Source of the DNA: an uncultured Phycisphaerales bacterium
GTDB taxonomy: Bacteria; Planctomycetota; Phycisphaerae; Tepidisphaerales; Tepidisphaeraceae
DNA length: 64,000 nucleotides
Reading direction: 5' to 3'
NCBI GenBank assembly: GCA_963758525.1
Contig: CAVWVQ010000003.1
Location: forward strand, 3,744,001-3,808,000
This document shows positions 23,974 through 53,269 of this stretch, one piece after another. The notes under the pieces are model-generated. The model had not been told where the DNA came from. It searched no databases and worked only from the letters and a program-made list of their open reading frames with translations. Made by a program: the position numbers and the translations under genes. Position 1 is the stretch's first letter. Every line of letters starts with the position of its first letter.

Positions 23974-24271
23974 GTCGTACCACGGGTTTCCAACCCGTGC
24001 GTGCTGCGCAGCGGGGAATGAGTTCCTCTGGGTTCCCGATTGTCACCTTGCAGCGAACAATTTCGACTCGAACTTCCACCTGCGACACTGTTCGTCCATT
24101 GAAGCTGCGGATTATAGTCATGCGGGAGGAACAGACCAAAGGGAGTGGCGAAATGACGCAATGAGTAAATCGCAATGAATCCTTTTTTCTCCGCGAAGGG
24201 CAAGCCACGGCGAAGCCGTTGGCGAGACCCGTGTGACCGGTGCCCCCGTCCCTTCCGTTTCCGATTCCTCC

Positions 24272-24300
24272 CCTCCGTGCCTCCGTGCCTCCGTGCCTTC
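24272..24300. repeat. (CTCCGTGC)n octamer tract (also ~38205-38245, ~45070-45096)
   Basis: ctccgtgcctccgtgcctccgtgcc. Confidence 0.8.
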
Positions 24301-33281: not shown

Positions 33282-34427
33282 TCATCCCCGGATAATCTGC
33301 GCCATCGCATCCGCGAGCTTTTCCGGCGTGCAGGAAAGAATGTCCATCCCGACTTTTCGGCACTTGGAGGCGGTGGTCTTGTTGTATTCGGGACGAGCGG
33401 AGTAGCCGAGCGCGCCGAGGCCGATCATTCGAACGCCCGACTGGGCCATGTCGCGCACCTGGCTGACCAGATCGCGCTCCGAGCGCCCTTCGTAGAAATC
33501 GGTGATCAAAACGACGATCGTCCGGCCGGGCTGCGCGACCAGTTGATTCGCGTAATGGAGTGCTTTGGCGATATCCGTCCCGCCGCCGAGTTGGATCGAG
33601 AGCAGCACATCGACGGGCTGGCCGACCTTGTCGCTGAGATCGGCGATGTCGGTGTCGAAGAGGAACAGGCTCGTGCGCACCGACGGAAGCTCAGCGAAGA
33701 TGGACGCCATGACGGCAGAGAAAATCGCCGAGTCGAGCATCGAGCCGGATTGATCGACGGCGACGATGATGTGCCAGGGCCGGCTCCTGCGCTCGGCGGC
33801 ATGGAAGTAGAGGCGGTTGACCAGCAGCTTGGCGGACTCGGCATCATAGTTGTGCAGATTGCGGCGAATCGTCCGGCCCAGATCGAGGTTGCGATACACC
33901 CGCCGGGGCGAATGCTTGTCGCGCCGGATCGCGCCCGTGATGGCCGGCTCAATCTGCACTTTCAGCTTCTGCTTCAACTCCTGCACGACCTTGTCGATGA
34001 TCTTGCGCGCCAGGGAGCGCGTCTGCTCGTTGAGCAGATCGCGATGCGTCAGCAGTGTCTTGACCAATTCCTGGTTCGGCTCGATCCGCTCCAGCAATTC
34101 GGGCTTCTGCATCAGCTCGCGCAGGCCTTTGCGATTGACCAGCTCGCGCTCCATCACCTCTTTGGCTTCGCGGGGAAACAGCTCGCCAACCTCGTCCACC
34201 CAGCGCGGGACGTTCATCGCGTGGCCCGGGCCGGAGCCGCCGGTTCTGTCCCCGTGCTTCGGCTTCGCGCCGGCAGAGTCTTCGAAGAGGAAGCCGACGA
34301 GCGCTTCGATCCGCGCGGCTTGTTCGTCGTCGCCGGCGATCGAGACCCCGTGCTGGTCCGCGGCCTTCCCCAGGACCAGCCGCCAGCGGGTCAGCGTTTT
34401 GCGTTGTTGTTGAGTGAGATCTGCCAT
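33282..34427 (-). CDS. VWA/CoxE-like protein (YehP-like)
   Basis: RWRLVLG, MIDAS DQSGSM, LGGGTDI, ITDFYEG. Confidence 0.88.
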   Translation of the reverse strand: MADLTQQQRKTLTRWRLVLGKAADQHGVSIAGDDEQAARIEALVGFLFEDSAGAKPKHGDRTGGSGPGHAMNVPRWVDEVGELFPREAKEVMERELVNRKGLRELMQKPELLERIEPNQELVKTLLTHRDLLNEQTRSLARKIIDKVVQELKQKLKVQIEPAITGAIRRDKHSPRRVYRNLDLGRTIRRNLHNYDAESAKLLVNRLYFHAAERRSRPWHIIVAVDQSGSMLDSAIFSAVMASIFAELPSVRTSLFLFDTDIADLSDKVGQPVDVLLSIQLGGGTDIAKALHYANQLVAQPGRTIVVLITDFYEGRSERDLVSQVRDMAQSGVRMIGLGALGYSARPEYNKTTASKCRKVGMDILSCTPEKLADAMAQIIRG

Positions 34428-34439
34428 GGTGGGACCGAA

Positions 34440-36956
34440 TCAATTTTTGTCGCTGATCCATTTCTCCAGGATCGCCGCGACCTCGGTATCGAGTTGAGCC
34501 ATCAACCGGGCGGCGCCCACGCTGATCGTGAGGGTGCGGAGCGATTCACTTTCCTTCAGACCATACAGTTCCGCCACGTGCGACGCGACGCCGTCGCGCT
34601 GGCGCTCGTGCAGCGTCTCAAACGCCGCGCGGAGGCGCGGCACCATGTTGAGAAACGTTTCTCCGTCCGCGTTTTGCAGCAGTTCGTCGATCGCGGCAAC
34701 GAGCGCCGTCGCCCCCAGCAGGATCGCGGTCTTGGAGACGCGGAGCACGCCGTGCAGGAAATCGCCCGCGACCACCTGCTGATCGATGCCGCCCCGCGCG
34801 TACGCGCTCAGTTCCGCGGCGAGCGCCTCGGGCTTCATTCGCCGCATCTCTGTCAGAACGCCGAGAAACGCGCCGCGCAGGAATGGCATCGTCGAGTCCT
34901 TCGCGGCCCGATCGACGTGCGCTGCAAACAGGTCGGCATCCAGGTCCTGGCGTTGGACCACGGGCTCGGCCAGCGCCAACAGCCCGTGAATGACGTTGTC
35001 CCATTCCTCGGGCGGCACCGACGCGACTTGCGAGACCGCAAAGCACGCCCGATCGAAGCAGCGCGCGATCAGATCCGCGAGCCGTTGCTTTCCCATCCCG
35101 CGAAGCGCCGCATACCGCTCCAGCAGCATCAGCGACGTGAGCGCGTCAGTGAGCGAATGGAATCGATCATCATGGTCGATGGCATGCCCGGTGGCTTGCT
35201 CGGCCTGCGCGACAAGCGTCGGAAGATCCATGTCGATTGCCTGCACGAGCCGCCGGCATGCGGGGCCGGCTTCGAAGCTGTTTGCGCCGAGGCCTTCCCG
35301 CAGCAGCGTCATCGCCGCGACTTCCACGGTGTCGCCATGCAGGCTGCGCTCGATGAGCGACGCTCCGATCTTCGGACTCCACCGCAATTTCCAATGCTCC
35401 TTGAAGATCGACTGCCCGAAGGGGGACGTTTCGCGCTGCAGCGTGCCGATCTCGACGCCCAAAAAAATCAGGCGATGGAGGAATGCGGAGCGCGCCGCAT
35501 CGTTTGGCTGTCGCTTGTCGAGCGCATAAGTCTGCACTTTCTCGCGGGCGGCGACTTCCTCCAGATCGAGCCTGGCGAGTTGTTCGTAGAAGTCGTTGAT
35601 GATCGGAAGTCGGCCGATCCGGTCCGTCACCCGGCCGAGGCGCGTGCCGATGTTCACTTCGTCGATGGCATCCAGCAGGTTGCCCGCGTCGGTCTTCGGA
35701 TTTCCCTTGCAGCAGCAGGTGATCAGGGCATCGTGGATGTCATCCAGCACCGGGTGCTGCCGCCCGCGCAGGCGGGCGAGCATGAGCGCGTTCTGCGTCG
35801 CGGAGATGGCATCGGCTGAAGAGAAGAGCTCGCCGCGCCGGCGCGACTCCTTCAGGCAATCGATGACGTAATCGATCACCACCTGATCCTGCCCGATCCC
35901 TGCCGAATGGCTCTCGTAACACATCTCGTAAAAACGGGGCGCGCGGTTCCCGGCCCCATAGCCCGACAGCTCCGAAATCCGGAAGTATGAGTACGGCGCG
36001 ACGGTCACGCTCAGCGTTCCCTGCGGGATCGGCGGCGGAGGCTGGGGATCATTCCGATCGAGAAAAATGTGAAAGCCGCCGCAAACAACCATCGCCTCGG
36101 AAGGTTGAATGTTCAGATTGTCGAGCGTCTGGCGGATGGTTTTCCACATGAACCGCTCGCGGGCGAGAGTACCGTCGAACTGCAACGAGTCCGCCGGCGT
36201 GGTGGCGCGAACCGCCGCGCAGAACAGCGCAACATCGCGGCGCATGGTTTCGTAAGACTCGTCGGGCCGCGGGGTTTCAAAGAGTCTGTCCCATGTCTCG
36301 TTCCAGCTTCGATAGCCGGCGGTTTTCGCAAGCACCTGGTAGAACGTGCTGCGCGGGGCGATTTCATCGAGATCGCGCCGCTGCGCCGGCTGCGGTTGAT
36401 CGACGCCAGGGGAGGGCGGTCTTCCGATCGCATAATGGGGCAGGTCCATGAAAACGCTTTGGGCGCCGATCTCCCTGGCCGTGAGCATCGCGACGTATTC
36501 GGGCGAGTAGCTGACCAGCGGATACCAGACCGAATAGCGGGGGACCGGGATCGATGGACCCGCAACTGGTGCGCTTGCGGCGGTGTCGTCGCGGAAGCTG
36601 GAATAAATTGCCACCGGCGGGCGAGTCTTGGAATCGATGAGAAACTCGATCATCTCCTGCGCTTCGTGCGGCCCTTCGATGAACACGATCCGCGGCTTGC
36701 GCTGGCGGATCGCCTGGGCAATGTGCCGGGCGATGGCGGGGGAGTGATGCCGGACCGGAAACCAATAGAGCGGCTCGTTGAGAATCGTGTCCACGCTCGC
36801 GACCAGCGCGTCGACATCGAGTATCGCAGCGCGGGCGGCGTCAAGAACCTCGGAGGCAACTTCCGGGTTTGCGGGTGGCGCACCCATTTCCTCTCCCGGT
36901 ATGCCGCGGGAGGGCTGGGGTGGGGGCGTTTTCTGCTGTTGAAAAAGCTTGCTCAT
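34440..36956 (-). CDS. DUF5682 / YehM-like protein (start uncertain, 5' end overlaps a REP)
   Basis: PVRHHSP, IEGP, SPEYVA, RERFM, VCGGFH, GYGAG. Confidence 0.82.
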   Translation of the reverse strand: MSKLFQQQKTPPPQPSRGIPGEEMGAPPANPEVASEVLDAARAAILDVDALVASVDTILNEPLYWFPVRHHSPAIARHIAQAIRQRKPRIVFIEGPHEAQEMIEFLIDSKTRPPVAIYSSFRDDTAASAPVAGPSIPVPRYSVWYPLVSYSPEYVAMLTAREIGAQSVFMDLPHYAIGRPPSPGVDQPQPAQRRDLDEIAPRSTFYQVLAKTAGYRSWNETWDRLFETPRPDESYETMRRDVALFCAAVRATTPADSLQFDGTLARERFMWKTIRQTLDNLNIQPSEAMVVCGGFHIFLDRNDPQPPPPIPQGTLSVTVAPYSYFRISELSGYGAGNRAPRFYEMCYESHSAGIGQDQVVIDYVIDCLKESRRRGELFSSADAISATQNALMLARLRGRQHPVLDDIHDALITCCCKGNPKTDAGNLLDAIDEVNIGTRLGRVTDRIGRLPIINDFYEQLARLDLEEVAAREKVQTYALDKRQPNDAARSAFLHRLIFLGVEIGTLQRETSPFGQSIFKEHWKLRWSPKIGASLIERSLHGDTVEVAAMTLLREGLGANSFEAGPACRRLVQAIDMDLPTLVAQAEQATGHAIDHDDRFHSLTDALTSLMLLERYAALRGMGKQRLADLIARCFDRACFAVSQVASVPPEEWDNVIHGLLALAEPVVQRQDLDADLFAAHVDRAAKDSTMPFLRGAFLGVLTEMRRMKPEALAAELSAYARGGIDQQVVAGDFLHGVLRVSKTAILLGATALVAAIDELLQNADGETFLNMVPRLRAAFETLHERQRDGVASHVAELYGLKESESLRTLTISVGAARLMAQLDTEVAAILEKWISDKN

Positions 36957-37015
36957 TTCATAAGAGGACCCTCACTCCACCCTCTCCCGGTACTCCGGGA
37001 GAGGGTGGAATGATT

Positions 37016-38182
37016 TCACTTCAGGGACTTTTGTGCCTCGTCGTGGAATGACTGCCAGTGTTTATCCGACATCCCGCGTTTCCTGGCGACGATCGCAACA
37101 TATTCCTTGAGCGCGGCCAGATCCTGCGGGTCTTCCTTCACGATCGATCCGATCAGATTTCGCGCGATCGATCCTCCCGAGACTTTCCCGTCCCCGAAGA
37201 AACGGCTGTGGAGTGCGGCATCGACGGCGGTGCCGATCGCTTCCGCGGTGGAAAGAGTGGTGCCGGGGGATTTGACGCTGATGCCCTCCGCGGTTTTGCC
37301 GTCGCGCAGCTCGCGGAACGCGGTGGCAAGAAGATCGAGGATCGCCGGCTCGATTGTTGTGGGAATGTCATAACGCGAAAGAAGGTCCGCCGTCCGCTGA
37401 CGCACGATCTCGATTTCCGTCTTCTTGTCGGCGACGATCGGAATGTGGACGTAGTTAAACCGGCGTTTGAGGGCGGCTGAAAGATCATTAACGCCCTGAT
37501 CGCGGGAATTGGCAGTGGCGATGATATTGAAGCCCGGCCTGGCGAAGATGGTATTCGCATCCGGCAGTTCCGGAATTGCGATGTTCTTGTCCGACATGAT
37601 TGAGACAAGGGCGTCCTGCACGTCGGGCACGCAGCGCGTGATTTCCTCAAAGCGAAGCAGCCCGCCGCACCGCATGGCGACCATCGTCGGCGAGGGTATC
37701 AGATTGTTGGGCGTGGGACCTTCGGCGATGACGCGCGCGATATTCCAGGAATACTTGATGTGCTCCTCAGTGGTGCCTGCCGTACCCTGAATAACCAGCG
37801 TGGAGTTGCCGGCTATCGCGGCGGCGAGATGTTCGCTGAGCCAGCTTTTGCCGGTGCCGGGGTCGCCCACCAGCAGGAGCGAGCGCTCGGAGGCAAGCGT
37901 GACGATCGCCCGCTCGACAATGGCGGTATCACCATAGAATTTGCGCGTGATATCGACTTTCTTCTTCTTGCCGTCGATCGTCGCTTCCAGCGTCTTGCCG
38001 CCGAGGATGTAGGCCAAAACGGAACGTGGCGCAAGTTTCCAGGATGACGGAGGCTTGTCCCCCTCGTTTTGACGCAGCGCCTCGAGCTCATCGGCATAAG
38101 TGACTTCCGCCGGCAAGCGCAGCACATCGCTCTCCGCGGCGTGATGTTCCTTTTCCAAAGTCGGCTCCGTTTTCTTCGCCAT
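37016..38182 (-). CDS. MoxR-family AAA+ ATPase (YehL-like)
   Basis: GDPGTGKSWLSEHL, FEEITRC, ATANSRDQGVNDLSAALKRRFN. Confidence 0.9.
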   Translation of the reverse strand: MAKKTEPTLEKEHHAAESDVLRLPAEVTYADELEALRQNEGDKPPSSWKLAPRSVLAYILGGKTLEATIDGKKKKVDITRKFYGDTAIVERAIVTLASERSLLLVGDPGTGKSWLSEHLAAAIAGNSTLVIQGTAGTTEEHIKYSWNIARVIAEGPTPNNLIPSPTMVAMRCGGLLRFEEITRCVPDVQDALVSIMSDKNIAIPELPDANTIFARPGFNIIATANSRDQGVNDLSAALKRRFNYVHIPIVADKKTEIEIVRQRTADLLSRYDIPTTIEPAILDLLATAFRELRDGKTAEGISVKSPGTTLSTAEAIGTAVDAALHSRFFGDGKVSGGSIARNLIGSIVKEDPQDLAALKEYVAIVARKRGMSDKHWQSFHDEAQKSLK

Positions 38183-38251
38183 ATATCACTCCCATTCCTT
38201 ACCCTTCGTGCCTCCGTGCCTCCGTGCCTTCGTGCTTTCGTGCCTTCCCGG

Positions 38252-39361
38252 CTAAGTAAACTTCATCGCCTTTACCAGCTCCGCCTGACTGATTTTGTCG
38301 GCTGAGACGGTCAGATACTCCGGCCCGTCTTTGCCAAGCGCCGTCAGCGGCTGCAATAGCAGCTTGCAGGATTCGTAGTGTACGACGCCGTAGATCGGCG
38401 GCCTCTTCTTTTGTGCCGCCAGCTTTCCCATCACGGCATGCAACGGCGTGCCCGACGGACCGCGATCGAGCCGCGCCTCGAATTGCAAGGTTTGCGTGCT
38501 GAGTGGCAGGAGGTCGTAGCCTTCCTCTGAAGATGTTCGCTCGCCCGCCTGCCATTGGTCGACGAAGACTTCCTCCTGCAATTCGATCTCCAGATCCAGC
38601 GGCGTCGGGCGATGCTGCTCCAGCCGCGCCGACGCCGCCCGTGGATCCCAGTGCCACAGCGATTGCCAGTCCGTGAACGCGCTTGCCGTCTTCATCTCGC
38701 TGGCATCACCGAGGATCAGGCGAGTGACGCCGGGGGGCTGACGATGAATCGAACAGCGGCTGATTTCCACCGCTTTCTTCTCGAGCAGAAGCGATGGCTT
38801 GAATTTCTGCTTCTGCGGCAAATGCAAAAACGCCTCGGCGGGTAATTCGAGATCCTTTCGCATCGGAAAGACACAAGACCAGATGATCGCCTCGCCGGCT
38901 TCCACGGGCGCCGACGCTTCGATCGCGCGGAGACGGAAATCAAAGCTCGCAAACGCCCCCGGCACCACGCGCTTGGCAACGCCAAGCGTAACAACCTTCA
39001 GGCTCTGCACCGGCTGCGTCGGCGGAGTCGACATGAGAGCATCGAACGCGGCATTGTCGTTTGAATCGATCGCGCGGCGCATGCTCGTCGCCAGCAGCCA
39101 TGCTCGGCCGAGAAGAAACGCGAGGCGCCGCGAAGAGAATTGGGCCGATCCGGCGGTAAACCGCGAAATCTCCTCGTTGGCGATGCGAAGCGTCGAGCCC
39201 AGCCGGAGCAGACGCATGCGCGACGCCTCCTTGAAGCTCACGTCGATACGCTCGACCGTGGATTTGGAAGCCGCCGTGAGCCCGGCCAGCAGCAACTCCT
39301 CGACCGTGCCGCACAGTTCATCGAGAAGGGAGATGAGTTGTTTCTGTTCGGCTTGCTGCAT
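38252..39361 (-). CDS. Hypothetical protein (369 aa) in the Ku/ligase/MoxR operon
   Basis: Long co-oriented ORF, normal codon usage; helical N-terminus. Confidence 0.75.
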   Translation of the reverse strand: MQQAEQKQLISLLDELCGTVEELLLAGLTAASKSTVERIDVSFKEASRMRLLRLGSTLRIANEEISRFTAGSAQFSSRRLAFLLGRAWLLATSMRRAIDSNDNAAFDALMSTPPTQPVQSLKVVTLGVAKRVVPGAFASFDFRLRAIEASAPVEAGEAIIWSCVFPMRKDLELPAEAFLHLPQKQKFKPSLLLEKKAVEISRCSIHRQPPGVTRLILGDASEMKTASAFTDWQSLWHWDPRAASARLEQHRPTPLDLEIELQEEVFVDQWQAGERTSSEEGYDLLPLSTQTLQFEARLDRGPSGTPLHAVMGKLAAQKKRPPIYGVVHYESCKLLLQPLTALGKDGPEYLTVSADKISQAELVKAMKFT

Positions 39362-39453
39362 GTGTCCGCGATCCGTCAGAGTGTGAGTCTGGGGCGGGAT
39401 TCATCCCGCCGCATTCTCTGCTTCCCAAGACAATTGGCGGGATAAATCCCGCC

Positions 39454-39814
39454 CTACTCATCTTCAGTTGATTCGGGACTTTCTTCCCGATCGAGCAGTG
39501 CCACGGTCGTCTTGAGATGGGTGCCAACGACTCTCAGCGTGAGAAGTCGTTCCAGAAGGCGCACGGAAATCTGTGCTTCCAGCAGTTTGCGCGCGGACGC
39601 CCGTTCGTCCTTCTCGATTTGTGAATGCAGGGCCGACAGAATCGACGCCACATGTCCCGCGCCGGCTTGTTCCAGATATTCGGTAAATGACTGCAATTGC
39701 GACAGTTCATCCGGCCCGCAGGCGCAGGCCGCGAACGACAAGTGTTTCCAGCAGCGATCGCAGTCGTTCGATGCCGACGCGGAGTTCATCGAATTCGGAT
39801 GCACCAGTCACCAT
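39454..39814 (-). CDS. Small helical hypothetical protein; frameshift near 39722
   Basis: ATG 39814 gives MVTGASEFDELRVGIERLRSLLETLVVRGLR, which joins ACGPDELSQLQ... if a CG is restored. Confidence 0.65.
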
Positions 39815-39815
39815 G

Positions 39816-40709
39816 CTAATCGATGGAGCGGGAGTCGCCGCCGGCCCCAACCCCGCCAGTTGCCGGAACGGATTGGATGATCACGTATTGTTTTCGGAAC
39901 TCCACTCCGGCGTGCTCCCATGACTCGACGTATTTGCGCAGGGCGGATTTGCCCTCCTCAAATTCGGCGCCGTTGATTCGGCAATCCGCCTGGGCCGCGC
40001 CATCCTGGTTGCGCATGGCGAAAAGCCGAATGGCGCAAAAATGATCTGATTCCAGTAGCGATTTGAAAGCCTCGATTGATCGGGTCAGCAGACAACAGGG
40101 GCAAAATTGATGTTTGTCCCCGCCGCCGGCAGTTGGCTGGTCGGATGCATTGGGGTGTTGTTGATAGTGTGCCACGGGTCCCAGCACCACTCGACGGTGC
40201 CGCGCGGGCGTCGCGTCCTTCGGTGGAAATGACATCGAGAGAAGCGTCAACTGCTGAGGCTTCTCCCGGAGCGCTTCGACAAAAACAATATAATCAACCT
40301 GCGCCCACTGATCGAACCCCTTGGCGATCGAATCTTCCGCGCTGTCGCCCGTCGAATGTTGAAATTCAAATATCGGCTGAGGAATCAGCGTCGGATGGCT
40401 GATGTGAATCGTCGTGGTGGTCCTGGCTCCGCCAGCGTCCAGCGGCTGAAATCCTTCAACTTTTGGCCGGATGACGAAGCTGCGATCCTCGTCTTCAATG
40501 CGATCCTGGTGGCAAGTCACACGATACCCGCGCTGCCGAAGTACGCGGGCCGCGACCTCGAAGAGATTGAATTGCTCGTTCCAGGTCTCTGTTCCTCGGG
40601 CGTATGCGATCTTGACGTCTCCGGGAGATTTGGTGGTCGCAGCCGGAGCTGCAACCTGCTGTTGCGGTCCAGGTATCGGCCGGGCAGTTTTTTTGAACCA
40701 TCCAAACAT
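39816..40709 (-). CDS. Hypothetical protein, DUF6348-like
   Basis: MFGWFKK start; EFQHSTG, ADCRING, EFRKQYVI. Confidence 0.65.
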   Translation of the reverse strand: MFGWFKKTARPIPGPQQQVAAPAATTKSPGDVKIAYARGTETWNEQFNLFEVAARVLRQRGYRVTCHQDRIEDEDRSFVIRPKVEGFQPLDAGGARTTTTIHISHPTLIPQPIFEFQHSTGDSAEDSIAKGFDQWAQVDYIVFVEALREKPQQLTLLSMSFPPKDATPARHRRVVLGPVAHYQQHPNASDQPTAGGGDKHQFCPCCLLTRSIEAFKSLLESDHFCAIRLFAMRNQDGAAQADCRINGAEFEEGKSALRKYVESWEHAGVEFRKQYVIIQSVPATGGVGAGGDSRSID

Positions 40710-40744
40710 ACAGATCCCGGGCGCGGCGACCGCGTTTGTGACCC

Positions 40745-42856
40745 CTAGACCGCGTAATAATCTTCCGGCACGGTTTCGGTCGGCCGCCAATCCACTTCGC
40801 CGGCCTCGGCTCCCTTGTAGCGAATGAAGATCTCGCCCATCGTCTCCTTGTTCAACTCCGGCTTGGCGTCGTGCGTCCTGGCGATCCATCTGTCGATGGT
40901 CGAGGGATCGAGTTCCCCCGCCTTCACCAGGCCGATGATGAGCACCAGCAGATGTTTGCAGATCGAGCCGCGCAGACCGCCGCAGATGTTGAGGTTCTGG
41001 GTGCAGCAGGCGTATCCGCCGCCCGACTCGATCCGACAGGCGTAAACCAGATCAGCGTCCGTCTGGCTCTTGACCACGCCATTGAGATGCGTTTCGGTGA
41101 CGTCGTTGAAGAGTTGGAATCGCTCGGCCTTGAGCATTTTCGTTGCTTTATCGATTTTCGCCTTGTCTGCGCGAAGCTCGAGCGCTTTGAGGAATGTTGC
41201 GATGTCGGTGACTTGGCCGATCTCTTTGGCAATCTGCTTTGCGATGATTCTCTTGGCGGTCGCCTGCTGTTGTTCCGCGAGCTTTTTGACCTTCTCGCGT
41301 CGCTCGCGATCGATGGCTTTCTGCTCCTGCAGTTGCTCTCGGCGCGCTTTCGCTGCCGCCGCAAGTTCCTTCTCACCCGGAAGGGGCTGCGCGAAAGCCT
41401 CGGAAATTCCTTTCAGGACGAGCTCGCGAAGTTCCTTTCCGGCCTTGGGCGATTTGCTGGTTTCGATGTCCAGTGTTTCGAAACGAACCTGGCGATTCGT
41501 CAGCATATTGGCCAGAAGCAGCATCGAAGCGGAAAAGGTCGTGCTCGTCTGCCGCGCGAGTCGCCCGGCCAGGAGCGTTTGGGGAATCCGCAGCGCCCAG
41601 CCGTACTTCAATCGTGCGGTGTCGAGTCCGACTTCCTCCCCTTCGTCCGCTGCGTCCGTTCGAACGCGAAACGTCAGGCATATCCGCCGTGCCTGTTGTG
41701 CCAATGCGTCCAATTCCTTGAGGGCGGGACCAACCGCTCCCGCGGGAGCTGCGGCAGGATTGTAGTTTGTTGCGTTCTTCAGGTTGACGCCGTGAAGCTT
41801 CGCGCCTCTGAGGTTGCACTCCGTCAAGTCCGCGGCGTCGAAGCGGGAGTTGGTCAGGTCCGTGTCCGCGAAGTTGGCGCGCACGCAACTTGCGCCGCTA
41901 AAGTTGGAATCCGGCATGCCGCAGCCGACGAACGTGACTCTGTCCAGATTGGCATTGCGGAAGCTTGCCGCGGTGAACGTGCATAAGTTGAACACGCTGT
42001 CGGAGAGGTTGGCGCCATCGAAGTCTGGGGATTTCAGCGACAGGTTCAGAAACTTCGCCAGCCGCACGGAGGTTCCCGCAAAGACACAGCCGGTTGTGTG
42101 CAGTTCCTGAGCGGCCGTCAGGCCGTACATGGATCGCGTCAACGAGGCCTTATGGAGCATCGCGCCAGTGAAGTCTGCAGACGTCAGGCTTCCCTGAAAT
42201 CGGGCGCCTTCCAGGTCTGTCTTGTGAAATCGGCTGCCCTGCACGTCCACAAACGCCGCGCCCACCGCGTCGGCTCTGCTGAAATCGCAATTCCTGGCAG
42301 AAGCGAAGCTGGCGTTGCCCAGCTTAGAGCGGGCAAAGCTGCATTGCTCAAAGCCGATGGAGCCGAAGTCGAATCCCGGCAGTTCCAAATTGTCGAAGTT
42401 CTCGCCGGCAAACGTGAAAAGCGGCGCAAAGGTTTGATGGGGATAACGCAACTGTCGAGCGTCAGCCCCAACGGCTTTCTTGAACAGATCGGCGTTCGCT
42501 TTTCCGCCGCGAATGAGCAAAAGCGCCTCCTCTTCGGTTGGCACAACCATTTTCTCAAATGCATCGGCGTCGATTGTCTGTATCCCCGCGCCGTTCGCGT
42601 TTAGCGATAGCGCGAGCTTCTGGATGGTTTTCCCTCCGCTTAAATCCCTCAAAACCAGAAAATCCGCCGACTCGTCGAGTTCCTCAACAACAACCCCTTG
42701 CTGCGCGTCGACCATCCCTGTCAGTCGTTCCTTCACTCCATGATCGAACTTCCCGTTGAAGAACACCTTCTTCCCAAGCAGACGCGTCAGCACCGGCGGG
42801 AGGGCTTGCTCCTTCGGTGCGGGATTTGGATTCGCTGCCTTCTTCATTTTCCCCAC
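40745..42856 (-). CDS. BRCT + pentapeptide-repeat + SWIM zinc-finger multidomain protein
   Basis: GKKVFFNGKF...DFLV (BRCT-like); A(D/N)LxxAxF repeats; YACCTQNLNICGGLRGSICKHL. Confidence 0.78.
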   Translation of the reverse strand: MGKMKKAANPNPAPKEQALPPVLTRLLGKKVFFNGKFDHGVKERLTGMVDAQQGVVVEELDESADFLVLRDLSGGKTIQKLALSLNANGAGIQTIDADAFEKMVVPTEEEALLLIRGGKANADLFKKAVGADARQLRYPHQTFAPLFTFAGENFDNLELPGFDFGSIGFEQCSFARSKLGNASFASARNCDFSRADAVGAAFVDVQGSRFHKTDLEGARFQGSLTSADFTGAMLHKASLTRSMYGLTAAQELHTTGCVFAGTSVRLAKFLNLSLKSPDFDGANLSDSVFNLCTFTAASFRNANLDRVTFVGCGMPDSNFSGASCVRANFADTDLTNSRFDAADLTECNLRGAKLHGVNLKNATNYNPAAAPAGAVGPALKELDALAQQARRICLTFRVRTDAADEGEEVGLDTARLKYGWALRIPQTLLAGRLARQTSTTFSASMLLLANMLTNRQVRFETLDIETSKSPKAGKELRELVLKGISEAFAQPLPGEKELAAAAKARREQLQEQKAIDRERREKVKKLAEQQQATAKRIIAKQIAKEIGQVTDIATFLKALELRADKAKIDKATKMLKAERFQLFNDVTETHLNGVVKSQTDADLVYACRIESGGGYACCTQNLNICGGLRGSICKHLLVLIIGLVKAGELDPSTIDRWIARTHDAKPELNKETMGEIFIRYKGAEAGEVDWRPTETVPEDYYAV

Positions 42857-42859
42857 ATT

Positions 42860-44332
42860 TCACCCCTTGGCCGGCGCCCAGCCTTTGACGATGTTCTCAG
42901 CCTTCATCCCTATGAGCAAAGCCTCAATCTGCTCGCGCGAATTGCTCACGCGAATATCCCGGTCGATCGGTGTCGCGCGATTGGGACTGAAATCGGTGAA
43001 ATACGCGACATATGCCGGGAAATTGCCGCCTTCGGATTCCTTGTTGGTTTTCCAGAGCAGCAGCTTGCGGACCATCAGGTTGCCCTTGATGGTTTTCGTG
43101 AAGACCTCGCGCTGGAGCATCTGGCTTTTGGGAAGCGAAAGCTGCCGGGCGTCGCGATCGATCATCGCGACTTCGGTGATCTCGTGCACCTGATGCAGGC
43201 GAAGGTCCTGATGGCGAATCGTCTTGTCCTCGCGACGACGCACGAAGTTGGGCGAGATCGGGCTGGCCAGCGGAAGCCGCCGGATGGACTGATACATGTT
43301 GCGCGGCATGTCGTAGCCGAGCACCATCCGGTCGATGCTTCCGCCGCGCGTGGTCTGGCTGATCAGATCGAGGCAGGAGATTTCGATCACCCATTCGGGA
43401 CGGACCATCTGGTAAGCGACCGACTCGTTCACCTCGGCGTAGTCACTGTGGGCGGCCATGTCTTTGAGATCGCTGAGCCAGGCGCGCCGCTCGTCTTCGC
43501 TGATCCCGCCGCCGACGCGGCCCAGGATGTGGAAGCTGCTGTCCTGCCGCATCAGTCCGACGAGCATGTCGTGAATCATTCCCACGCGATCGTCCACGCC
43601 TTCGGTAAATCCCAGCACGGCCACGTCGAGCGAGATGCGCGGCTTGATCTTGAACAACCCGCCGCTGTCGGAGCGAACGACCAGACCCTCGCCGCCTTCC
43701 TCATCAACCCACTTGGCGAAACGTTGCATCACGTCGTCGACCGTTTTGGCCCTCGCGGTTTCCACGGGGTGGATCTTCTTGCCCGACTTGAAAGTTGCTT
43801 CGATTTTTTTGTGGACTTCGGCATATGCCGTCGGAGCGGATTTGTCGTCGATTTCATGAATGTCGAAGACGGCAAACTGCAGCAGGTCAAGCTCGGCTTG
43901 CGATTCGGGTTGGCGGGCGACGCGGGAAACATCGTGCACGCGCGGGCGGCGATCCGTCCGGGCAACGTATAACTCGCCGGCCAGGATCATCTTTTTGTGC
44001 TTTGTTTTGCCGAGCAGGGCGACCGCTTCCTGCATGAACGGCAATCCCGTCCGCACGACCCCGCCGGGATTGACCGAGCAGCAGTGGTCGCCGTCGATGA
44101 CCAGCAGCGTGAATTCCCCATCGACCTTTCGGCTGACAAAATAGTCGCAGGCGGGCAACTTCTCCTTCGCCGACGCCCGATCCAGCGCCATCATCTGTGC
44201 CGCCAGCTTGCGGCGGCATTCCTGGGCCTTGAGCGGGATAAACGGATCGGCCATGCATTGCGCTTTGCCGACGCCGTAGGTGCCAAAGAGCATCTGCAGG
44301 CGCGAGGTGTCGAGGAGCGTGTTGGTCGCCAT
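42860..44332 (-). CDS. Divergent ATP-dependent DNA ligase with C-terminal WGR-like domain
   Basis: SRKVDGE, AGELY, FAVFDI, EGLVVR, FKIKP, PEWVIEI, PNFVRRREDK; tail ends ...KAENIVKGW. Confidence 0.78.
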   Translation of the reverse strand: MATNTLLDTSRLQMLFGTYGVGKAQCMADPFIPLKAQECRRKLAAQMMALDRASAKEKLPACDYFVSRKVDGEFTLLVIDGDHCCSVNPGGVVRTGLPFMQEAVALLGKTKHKKMILAGELYVARTDRRPRVHDVSRVARQPESQAELDLLQFAVFDIHEIDDKSAPTAYAEVHKKIEATFKSGKKIHPVETARAKTVDDVMQRFAKWVDEEGGEGLVVRSDSGGLFKIKPRISLDVAVLGFTEGVDDRVGMIHDMLVGLMRQDSSFHILGRVGGGISEDERRAWLSDLKDMAAHSDYAEVNESVAYQMVRPEWVIEISCLDLISQTTRGGSIDRMVLGYDMPRNMYQSIRRLPLASPISPNFVRRREDKTIRHQDLRLHQVHEITEVAMIDRDARQLSLPKSQMLQREVFTKTIKGNLMVRKLLLWKTNKESEGGNFPAYVAYFTDFSPNRATPIDRDIRVSNSREQIEALLIGMKAENIVKGWAPAKG

Positions 44333-44335
44333 TGG

Positions 44336-45055
44336 TTACTCGCTGGTTTGCGGCCGCGCCTCGGCGGCCTTGAGTTCCATGTTGGAGAGGTGGAGGATCA
44401 GGCAATAGTTTTCCGCCTGCGTGCGTCCCTCCAGGAATCCGCGAAACTGCTGCCCGCCGCGAGTGAGGATCAGCGGATGATTCCCCTTGGGCCCGGCGCC
44501 GATAGCCATGAGGCTGTCGGTTTGCTCCAGTTCCCTGGCCATTGCGAAGAGGAAGTCGTAGGTGAGTCCGTTGACGTGAACGATCTGCCGTTTTCCCGCG
44601 AAGACAAACTTGTTGTAAACGTCCTTCTTCTTCATCAGTTTGCCGGACCACTTCAGCGGCGTTTCCCCGGCGCAGTTGGCCTGGGCGACCTTCCGCGGAC
44701 GCCGTTCGCGCTCGGTGCCGTCCGGATTCCGAATCACCTCAAATTGCTTCACCTTGTGAACGATCTTCCCGTCGGCGTCGATGAAGACCCGGCTGGTCTC
44801 CCTCAGCGTTGATCCAAAAGTTTCGATGTCGACATCCGGATCGCCGTCGATCAGAAGCTGTGCGATTTTGTCTCGCCCGCCGGCTTTCGCTTCGAGTGCC
44901 GCCAGATCATGCGCCGCATGCGCTTTCATCAGCCGGCACGACTGAATCTGCCGCCCCTGCTCGTCGAGCCAGCGCACCTTCGCCGGCTTCAAAACGCTCT
45001 GCGCACCCACCACCGCATCGCGTCCTTTGCTGTTGGCTATATTAATCGTTCCCAT
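44336..45055 (-). CDS. Hypothetical protein, Ku-like (by-eye similarity)
   Basis: KVRWLDEQGRQIQSCR; TYDFLFAMARELEQTDSLMAIG...YCLILHLSNMELK follows the Ku core pattern. Confidence 0.55.
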   Translation of the reverse strand: MGTINIANSKGRDAVVGAQSVLKPAKVRWLDEQGRQIQSCRLMKAHAAHDLAALEAKAGGRDKIAQLLIDGDPDVDIETFGSTLRETSRVFIDADGKIVHKVKQFEVIRNPDGTERERRPRKVAQANCAGETPLKWSGKLMKKKDVYNKFVFAGKRQIVHVNGLTYDFLFAMARELEQTDSLMAIGAGPKGNHPLILTRGGQQFRGFLEGRTQAENYCLILHLSNMELKAAEARPQTSE

Positions 45056-45103
45056 GTCCGCTCGCTCTTGCCTTCGTGCCTCCGTGCCTCCGTGCCTTCC
45101 CCC

Positions 45104-45718
45104 CTACATCATCCCGAAATCCATCGCCTCTTCATCCTCCGCTGTCGTGTCTTCGTCGCCGCTGATGGCGGCGCTTTGGTCGAAGCCAACGAACTCGAGT
45201 TTCGTGGGCGATCCCACCGCGAGAAACGGCGTTCCATCCGCGGCGAGCAGGAGAAAGCCGGTGTCGGCCTCCAGGCCGCCGCGGAACGAATAGGGGAACT
45301 GATAAATCGTCCCTTTTTTCAGTTCTGCCAGAAGCCCGCCGAAGTCTGCTTCGCAACTGATCTGATAGACCGACCGTATGTCGTGACTGAGATACTCTTC
45401 GATCGTCGCGGTCTTTTCCACCACGACTGGCGCGGCGTAAGAGGAACTGACCGGCACGATGCGGCTTCCCTGATTGTCAGTGGGAATCAGCGTCTTCTTT
45501 TCAACCCAATGCCCTTCGGGCGAGAGGGTGACCAGCGCCGTCCCGCCCGAAAAGATGACGCTCTTGCCGTCGTCGGCCAACGTCGCCAAGGTGCATTTGC
45601 GGCCCTTCTCGTCGAGCGTTTCGATCTCGACAGAGCCGTACAAGTCGGATCGCTCGACTCGGTTCAACGCAAACGGCAACTCAACTCCCCCGAAAGCCAA
45701 TATGAGCGGCTTAGCCAT
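45104..45718 (-). CDS. Hypothetical protein, Ku-like (by-eye similarity), acidic tail
   Basis: LILAFGGVELPFALNRV vs Ku GsIsFGLVnIPvkL; VEKTATIEEYLSHDIRSVYQI vs Ku iei.dFv...eIdpiyf...Yyl. Confidence 0.55.
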   Translation of the reverse strand: MAKPLILAFGGVELPFALNRVERSDLYGSVEIETLDEKGRKCTLATLADDGKSVIFSGGTALVTLSPEGHWVEKKTLIPTDNQGSRIVPVSSSYAAPVVVEKTATIEEYLSHDIRSVYQISCEADFGGLLAELKKGTIYQFPYSFRGGLEADTGFLLLAADGTPFLAVGSPTKLEFVGFDQSAAISGDEDTTAEDEEAMDFGMM

Positions 45719-52249: not shown

Positions 52250-53269
52250 CTAAAGGTCAGTCCTCACTCGCAGATAACTCGGAAACCGCGGGACGCCGCC
52301 TTCGGATAGTTCCTGGTAGCGAAAAGCAATCGTCGAGCCGATGGCAGGGGGGCTTTCCCGTTCCTTGTCGCTGAAGCCCGTTCCCACGGCGAACTCGGTG
52401 CCGTCCGGCAAGCGCACCAGCAGCGCGCCCAAACGTCCTTTATGCCTGCCCGCCCCGGCCTGATGCCCGGTCACGAGCGCATCGGCATCCTTGAAGCTCT
52501 TCACCTTCAGCAGCGTGGATGAACGACCGGCTTGATATGTCGAGGCGGGCTGACGCAGCATGAGACCTTCGCCTCCCAGGGATTCAACACGCGTCAATTC
52601 CTGCCGCAGGCTCGCGATGTCGCGGCACAACTGATGCGGATGCAACCCGGCAAACTTGCAGCTTCGGTCCGCAAACATCCGTTTCAGAAATTCCATGCGC
52701 GCTTCAAAGCCGCCAGCGACGGCGGGGGCGTCAAACACGAGATAGCGAACTTCCTTCCAGAGGTCGCTTTTGTCCTGCCGACGAACGATGCTGACGGTGC
52801 GCTGGAATTTTTTGCGATCGATCCAGAGTTCGCCATCAAGAGGGGTCTTCCCAAGGCCGGCCACGAACCAGTCCGGCGCGTGGTAGACGTTTCCCTGGCG
52901 GGAAAGAAACTGCTTGCCGTCCCAGTAGGCGCGCACTCCATCGAGCTTCTCGCTCATCCACCAGCCGGAAAGGTCGGCGGCGTTGTCCCAGCTTTCTGCC
53001 AGCAGAAGCGGGGGGCCGGCGCCCGCTTCACTGCCATCGGCGGAAGCTTTCACCGGTCGTTGCGGCAGCACGCCGCCAATGCGCGTGGTTTCGGCTGCAT
53101 CGCCACGAAGTTTGCGGAGGTGCTTGCAGGTTCTGCGTTCGATCGCAATCGATTGATTGCGCCACGCCGGACACGAGCATGAGAATACGCCGCCGGTGTT
53201 TTTGAGGACGTATGGCTTGGCGCCCGATCCTTGCATTTCGAATGTCTCGCCATCGTTGAGGTCGGCCAT
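52250..53269 (-). CDS. ATP-dependent DNA ligase (minimal type) with N-terminal SWIM zinc finger
   Basis: SCSCPAW...CKHL; SEKLDGVRA, DGELW, EGLMLR, LLKVK, PRFP. Confidence 0.88.
   Translation of the reverse strand: MADLNDGETFEMQGSGAKPYVLKNTGGVFSCSCPAWRNQSIAIERRTCKHLRKLRGDAAETTRIGGVLPQRPVKASADGSEAGAGPPLLLAESWDNAADLSGWWMSEKLDGVRAYWDGKQFLSRQGNVYHAPDWFVAGLGKTPLDGELWIDRKKFQRTVSIVRRQDKSDLWKEVRYLVFDAPAVAGGFEARMEFLKRMFADRSCKFAGLHPHQLCRDIASLRQELTRVESLGGEGLMLRQPASTYQAGRSSTLLKVKSFKDADALVTGHQAGAGRHKGRLGALLVRLPDGTEFAVGTGFSDKERESPPAIGSTIAFRYQELSEGGVPRFPSYLRVRTDL

Follow-up and report, generated by a model that had tools for sequence, protein, structure and literature searches.

A conserved bacterial gene module encoding two predicted Ku-like proteins and an ATP-dependent DNA ligase

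INTRODUCTION

The described systems closest to the locus reported here include those in which a bacterial Ku homodimer works with the ligase LigD, as in Mycobacterium tuberculosis and Bacillus subtilis, and the eukaryotic Ku70/Ku80 pair. In mycobacterial Ku, a C-terminal helical sling and helix 4 stabilize the dimer and make up the interface for synapsis (PMC12784962), interface residues of B. subtilis Ku lie at 206 to 217 (PMC12784961), and long basic C-terminal tails are typical of bacterial Ku (PMC4889933). Moreover, tandem ku genes are noted in a 2006 review (PMC1378119), and a study of Sinorhizobium meliloti proposes a Ku3-Ku4 heterodimer on genetic evidence only (PMC6379672); given this precedent, a bacterial Ku heterodimer is not new as an idea. 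Surveys of bacterial nonhomologous end joining (NHEJ) count Ku by sequence profiles (PMC7719229).

Here, we describe two adjacent genes, designated A and B, found beside an ATP-dependent DNA ligase gene in a 64,000-nucleotide stretch of DNA from an uncultured Phycisphaerales bacterium (the window, to whose positions all coordinates refer unless a locus is named). From the DNA letters and their translations alone, the two had been read as a tandem, highly divergent Ku-like pair and a possible heterodimer (hereafter, the original prediction).

RESULTS

Gene layout and sequence relatives

Both open reading frames were recovered where the original prediction had placed them, on the minus strand, with gene A (45104..45718) encoding 204 amino acids (aa) and gene B (44336..45055) encoding 239 aa, and all of the peptides that it quoted are present in the translations. 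The two genes are separated by 48 nucleotides (nt), and B is followed after 3 nt by the ATG (position 44332) of a 490-aa ATP-dependent DNA ligase (42860..44332, minus strand) with adenylation and OB domains in Pfam (PF01068, E 2e-8; PF04679, E 4e-6), which bears out the placement of the pair directly upstream of a ligase, a linkage that is kept across loci. Another 3 nt separate the ligase from a codirectional 703-aa gene (40745..42856, minus strand), so that the codirectional order runs A, B, ligase, and 703-aa pentapeptide protein, followed by a MoxR/DUF5682/VWA cluster.

At E ≤ 1e-3, A had 580 relatives and B had 2870, the best of them 65 to 91% identical over the full length, which ruled out shadow open reading frames or an artefact; a B profile search gave 545 representatives at 50% clustering. 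The nearest named relatives came from Tepidisphaeraceae and Humisphaera (77 to 78% identity), and the relatives of both proteins are unannotated. The GC content of the module is about that of the rest of the window, and a promoter and terminator scan at the locus returned chance-level signals, and no RNA holder was among the matches listed.

A tandem octamer, GGCACGGA (minus strand), occupies positions 45065 to 45098 between A and B, and the same repeat is found at the intergenic positions 24265 to 24297 and 38205 to 38245; the genome contains 43 occurrences of a 16-mer taken from this octamer repeat, in the manner of a REP-like dispersed repeat, with GGAGG inside. Elsewhere in the window, translations between about 19800 and 22500 resemble a tRNA gene cluster on one strand, and a second ATP-dependent ligase, of the PRK09125 type, is encoded 7 kb away from the module at 52250 to 53269; its N terminus bears a Cys/His cluster that looks SWIM-like by eye.

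Predicted Ku core fold

Sequence-based searches did not connect either protein with Ku. Pfam, NCBIfam, PHROGs, PADLOC, and PDB profile searches with A and B were blank or at chance level, a check against the Ku profile PF02735 gave no match for A or B, and PF02735 was absent among the families listed for alignments A3 (113 members) and A4 (148 members; best 25 of 54 families). Likewise, HHalign comparisons of A and B with 30 canonical Ku proteins of the same phylum gave E values of 0.14 to 0.38, four A/B profiles run against PDB sequences returned chance matches only (E > 0.3), and an ESM Atlas search with A and B yielded no named lead.

Predicted structures gave a different result. AlphaFold2 models, built from alignments of 113 (A) and 148 (B) sequences, were confident, with pLDDT values of 82 for A and 92 for B, and in Foldseek the best match of the A model was B. 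subtilis Ku (E 5.6e-5) and that of the B model was M. tuberculosis Ku (E 1.2e-5), all of the PDB rows among the matches listed for both being Ku-containing entries with bacterial Ku first. In a VIA comparison over 48,161 chains, independent of Foldseek, M. tuberculosis Ku ranked first for both A (residues 2 to 174 of Ku; Z 10.9, 161 residues aligned, rmsd 5.8) and B (Z 12.5, 152 aligned, rmsd 4.3), and the sole BFVD matches at E < 0.01 were two phage Ku proteins. Thus, the resemblance to Ku that the original prediction had drawn by eye is upheld for both proteins by predicted structure (Foldseek and VIA), whereas it is invisible to sequence methods (PF02735 and HHalign).

The Ku/SPOC barrel also occurs in non-repair proteins such as INTS13-INTS14, and in VIA the SPOC and INTS13/14 chains scored Z 7 to 11, with INTS13-INTS14 at Z 9.7 to 10.3, about 1 to 2 units under Ku, and unrelated folds below Z 5. 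The aligned length was 152 to 162 residues for bacterial Ku versus about 90 to 115 for the SPOC/INTS13/14 chains, indicating that the ring arm is included in the A and B matches. Whole-chain superpositions were loose (Foldseek TM 0.35 to 0.51, VIA rmsd 4 to 6 Å, identity 8 to 13%), the high rmsd being what would be expected for an arm modeled without its partner. The structural alignments end at residue 174 of M. tuberculosis Ku and at 188 to 189 of B. subtilis Ku, beyond which the A chain continues in an acidic tail of low confidence and the B chain stops within about 10 residues, suggesting that the sling and helix 4 are absent from the predicted A and B; the models lack both the C-terminal helical sling and the LigD-binding minimal C terminus. 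The N-terminal vWA and C-terminal arm/SAP domains are also absent, the Ku core match starting at residue 1 of these proteins of 204 and 239 aa.

Based on these models, A and B very probably each have the Ku core fold, a split beta-barrel with an inserted ring arm. The predicted core spans residues 1 to 174 of A and is net acidic, while that of B is net basic and carries a helical insert in its ring arm.

Co-occurrence and distribution

A B relative was found in 274 GTDB stretches, of which the best 80 served as genome loci. In 70 of these 80 loci, A immediately preceded B, and the ligase was present in 75. B was at a contig edge in 3 of the 10 loci without A, and 8 of the 10 corresponding genomes held A elsewhere, 7 among unrelated genes and 1 at a contig end. 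This leaves 7 genomes in which A and B are unlinked, and B can stay beside the ligase. In metagenome loci, A was upstream of B in 61 of the 64 with at least 400 nt upstream (16 of 80 being left out for short flanks), and the ligase was present in 48 of 53 (27 of 80 left out for the same reason).

Among 301 genomes sampled evenly across the phylum, B was found in 7 and A in the identical 7, and among 351 genomes of another class B was found in 17 and A in 15, all 15 with B; these samples include kin, and the class sample partly overlaps the loci used for the profiles. The 2 of 17 B-bearing genomes without a detected A are both fragmented assemblies. All 10 A-B copies in the phylum sample were adjacent, one pair consisting of weak fragments; A without B was not seen among the 22 A-bearing genomes of the two samples, and the copy numbers of A and B match in multicopy genomes. 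When trees of A, B, and the ligase were compared, the supported splits of the A tree proved compatible in 34 of 38 and 35 of 38 cases, and congruence was as high for A with the ligase as for A with B, so that it shows co-inheritance, not contact. Taken together, A, B, and the ligase constitute a conserved module that is inherited together.

B relatives are scattered over about nine phyla, as judged from record titles, and an order-level search for A and B (two genomes) returned nothing. Canonical Ku occurred in 48 of the 301 phylum genomes and, among the seven A-B carriers, in this genome only, which is about the chance level; the other six had no canonical Ku match. This genome has two canonical Ku genes and LigD besides the module, which would therefore not be needed there for ordinary NHEJ. 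As a separate observation, five genomes of the phylum sample hold tandem canonical Ku pairs resembling Ku3-Ku4 (G143:C68, G072:C2, G027:C252, G053:C223, and G133:C94).

The patchy spread (7 of 301 phylum genomes, about nine phyla) and the coexistence with canonical Ku-LigD in this genome could also be read as a sign that the Ku-like ring and ligase serve mainly genetic conflict or mobile-element biology, not routine chromosome repair, by protecting or reclosing the ends of an element that has been excised or cut or by undoing nuclease damage, and four copies (two genomes) do lie at or near DUF2924 and serine recombinase genes, with AbiEii near one. We consider this unlikely, as no B relative was found in IMG/VR, 72,556 plasmids, or 50,697 phages, which led us to reject a phage or plasmid as the host; PADLOC gave no match for A, B, or the window ligase, and a known defense system was rejected on that ground; and most loci are flanked by ordinary genes that vary between them, the GC content resembling that of the rest of the window.

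Relationship between A and B

As single sequences, A and B gave no significant BLASTP match (best E 0.31). With a diverse A alignment (A7), HHalign matched A51-183 to B81-235 (E 5e-5, 130 columns), and six of six subsamples gave E values of 1e-5 to 2e-4, compared with 0.13 to 0.73 for either family against Ku, the canonical Ku profile being drawn from one phylum only, and 0.33 for a reversed control. The signal requires the diverse A7, as narrower A alignments against B gave nonsignificant E values of 0.016 and 0.084. The earlier statement that the pair barely resemble each other is therefore right at the single-sequence level, but profiles place A and B nearer to one another than either is to canonical Ku. 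Judged by these profiles, A and B are distant paralogs, likely the products of a duplication within the A/B lineage.

The two subunits differ in charge, with a median core net charge of -9 in A and +4 in B (+2 in canonical Ku) and, among 124 pairs, 5 conserved basic positions in A and 20 in B (K/R in at least 80% of sequences). A ends in an acidic C-terminal tail (45107..45172, minus strand) with a conserved D-F-x-hydrophobic tip, where pLDDT falls below 50 for residues 181 to 200; its last 22 residues have a median net charge of -8, and 106 of 113 sequences have DF among their final 6 residues, a pattern that suggests a docking peptide. B has a specific insert at about residues 44 to 78 (44822..44926, minus strand), with two helices (51 to 58 and 61 to 71 in the model) followed by a conserved D-x-D/E-x-D-x-E stretch; its placement would follow from the register shift between A30-46/B25-41 and A51-183/B81-235. 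Tails of at least 40 aa occur in 18 of 116 B representatives, 16 of them net basic.

These differences raise the question of whether B alone could form the DNA ring as a homodimer, leaving A as a separate acidic adaptor, a chaperone, an inhibitor, or a homodimer of its own. Such an arrangement would suit the strongly acidic core of A with its few conserved basic positions, the genomes in which A is unlinked while B stays by the ligase, and, as weak evidence, the lack of a credible A-B fusion among longer sequences. However, A retains the full ring arm, with 161 residues aligned to Ku, never occurs without B in the 22 A-bearing genomes, and matches B in copy number, which makes a B homodimer quite improbable. 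Interprotein covariation over 124 paired sequences (Meff 79) was uninformative, the best A-B score (z 7.5) lying under those of shuffled pairings (8.3 and 9.1).

The single candidate fusion, P0391, comprises an AAA fragment joined to a partial A and looks chimeric. In another protein, P0247, B is fused to a basic tail and a C-terminal domain that appears SAM-like by eye.

The module ligase

Across 59 ligase sequences, K69, D71, G72, E120, D157, E215, G216, K228, K230, R367, D369, and K370 are invariant, and the KxDG and later ligase motifs are intact. LigD POL and PE domains are absent according to Pfam, the score against TIGR02779 was 53 versus a cutoff of 228, and basic tails occur in 37 of 117 ligases. 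The conserved C-terminal domain of about 95 aa (42863..43150, minus strand; alignment A8) looks WGR-like by eye only: no WGR (PF05406) match was found in 25 members, and HHalign against a two-sequence WGR profile gave E 0.015 over 25 columns. One database protein, P0333, consists of B fused to this domain (E 2e-29) and could be a deletion product. Two WGR-domain genes were also observed elsewhere in this genome (L139:742-1863 and L140), the former with a ligase-like domain bearing a KxDG motif, by eye, after the WGR domain.

A ligase of 1041 to 1042 aa occurs in four copies in two genomes, and the one scanned contains an AAA+ ATPase (E 2e-39); the four copies are at or near DUF2924 and serine recombinase genes, with an AbiEii gene near one. 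At these loci (L093:1894-5022, L094, L095, and L096), the ligase bears an extension of about 560 aa that includes the AAA+ ATPase, DUF2924 and a large serine recombinase are encoded alongside, and the presence of three AAA+-ligase copies in one genome suggests a mobile element.

It is very doubtful that the pair is a Ku/SPOC-fold scaffold for a nick- or RNA-sealing ligase that, like INTS13-INTS14, does not encircle DNA: INTS13/14 and SPOC domains do reach Z 8 to 11, 18 of 59 ligases weakly match the RNA_ligase model, and a phosphatase domain encoded near some modules resembles RNA-repair and polynucleotide-kinase enzymes, but Ku is the best and longest structural match of both models, the DNA-ligase OB domain is present in 59 of 59 members, and the PDB profile matches of the ligase are archaeal and human ATP-dependent DNA ligases.

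Accessory and neighboring genes

Of the 80 genome loci, 15 have a nearby gene for a primase-phosphatase protein that combines AEP-TOTE and HAD domains, and 11 of these 15 are Acidobacteria according to their titles; among metagenome loci the count was 8 of 80, and no homolog was found in this genome. Its HAD domain resembles phosphatases of RNA repair and of polynucleotide kinases.

The 703-aa gene has a weak BRCT match (E 0.06, below the cutoff) and pentapeptide repeats (E 3e-20) in Pfam and a Cys/His cluster by eye; it was matched in 4 of 179 loci (L001, partial; L141; L147; L148) and is a local accessory outside the core module. It belongs to a codirectional cluster at 33282 to 42856 comprising the BRCT-like/pentapeptide protein, DUF6348, two unknown genes, a MoxR AAA+ protein, DUF5682, and VWA-CoxE. 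The MoxR-DUF5682 cluster was found in 4 of 80 genome loci (two of them close kin), in L092, in L147, and in the window; L041, L044, L048, L066, L092, and L147 have related MoxR clusters next to the Ku-like module, and the orientation of the MoxR-DUF5682 cluster relative to the module varies. As the cluster is single-copy in this genome, its proximity to the module is by our estimate more than expected by chance. A gene for a MerR-HTH and TPR protein follows a canonical Ku gene of this genome (L101:7271-8131), and such a family (f8), found in 5 loci, occurs near the module in L008, L013, L048, and L060, the domains having been scanned in L013.

DISCUSSION

The overall explanation that we favor, with moderate confidence, is that A and B form a ring on DNA ends that recruits the co-encoded ligase. 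That the two form a heterodimer, presumably with 1:1 stoichiometry, is a part we hold with fair confidence, supported indirectly by their near-strict co-occurrence in both directions, mutual paralogy, and charge asymmetry, and end joining is probably the main role of the module. The arms of A and B would interlock into one asymmetric ring, which would thread onto a broken double-stranded DNA end as a putative end binder and recruit the ATP-dependent ligase, so that the ends are joined. In such a ring, the basic B would make most of the DNA contacts, while the acidic tail of A or the C-terminal domain of the ligase may take the place of the missing LigD-binding C terminus of Ku in docking the ligase. 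Where the AEP-HAD protein is present, it could provide fill-in and 3'-phosphatase activities, as LigD does through its POL and PE domains; in this genome, the module might join ligatable ends or borrow LigD.

The acidic tip of A is reminiscent of the C-terminal end of eukaryotic Ku80, which docks partners, and the AAA+-fused ligases recall the removal of Ku (Ku80) by p97. A more far-reaching reading, which we offer only tentatively, is that A and B represent a third Ku lineage that arrived at an independent Ku70/Ku80-style heterodimer by its own duplication, in which B would grip DNA, the acidic tip of A would dock the ligase, and, in some lineages, an AAA+ motor, either as a ligase fusion or as a neighboring MoxR-VWA cluster, would pull the trapped ring off after joining; this would be a convergence on the eukaryotic design with a three-gene minimum.

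Profile-based counts of Ku are blind to A and B, so six of the seven carriers in the phylum sample would not score as Ku-bearing. The module may offer a minimal three-protein system for asking why Ku rings become heterodimers and a test case for how a sling-less ring brings ends together and is removed, and it is a possible compact end-joining tool for editing bacteria without NHEJ. No description of the A-B family was found in the literature searched, mostly open-access main texts, nor is it mentioned in the accessible portions of PMC11936186, PMC11377751, and PMC7719229.

Among known systems, INTS13-INTS14 and the SPOC domains share with A and B only the beta-barrel, over about 90 to 115 residues (Z 7 to 11), and differ in being eukaryotic and without ligase linkage. 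Eukaryotic Ku70/Ku80 is likewise a paralogous pair with a Ku core, but its vWA, SAP, and helical-arm domains are absent from A and B, and no special kinship was seen, B scoring Z 12.3 and 11.8 to Ku80 versus 12.5 and 11.8 to bacterial Ku. The S. meliloti Ku3-Ku4/LigD4 system shares an operon with a pair of ku genes that are always maintained together and a proposed heterodimer, but its proteins are recognizable canonical Ku and their partner is LigD (PMC6379672); A and B have about 10% identity to Ku, are nearer to each other, and travel with their own ligase family. With the Ku homodimer and LigD of M. tuberculosis and B. subtilis, the module shares the predicted Ku barrel and ring arm, a neighboring ATP-dependent ligase, optional basic C-terminal tails, and an AEP and a phosphatase that can accompany it. 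It differs in having two unlike subunits, neither found by PF02735 and both without the C-terminal sling or minimal C terminus; in its ligase, a separate family that carries a distinct C-terminal domain and lacks both POL and PE; and in its optional polymerase, a TOTE-like AEP fused to HAD rather than the LigD Prim-Pol. The module thus probably works like Ku-LigD and, although not a member of PF02735, is probably a variant of Ku-ligase end joining.
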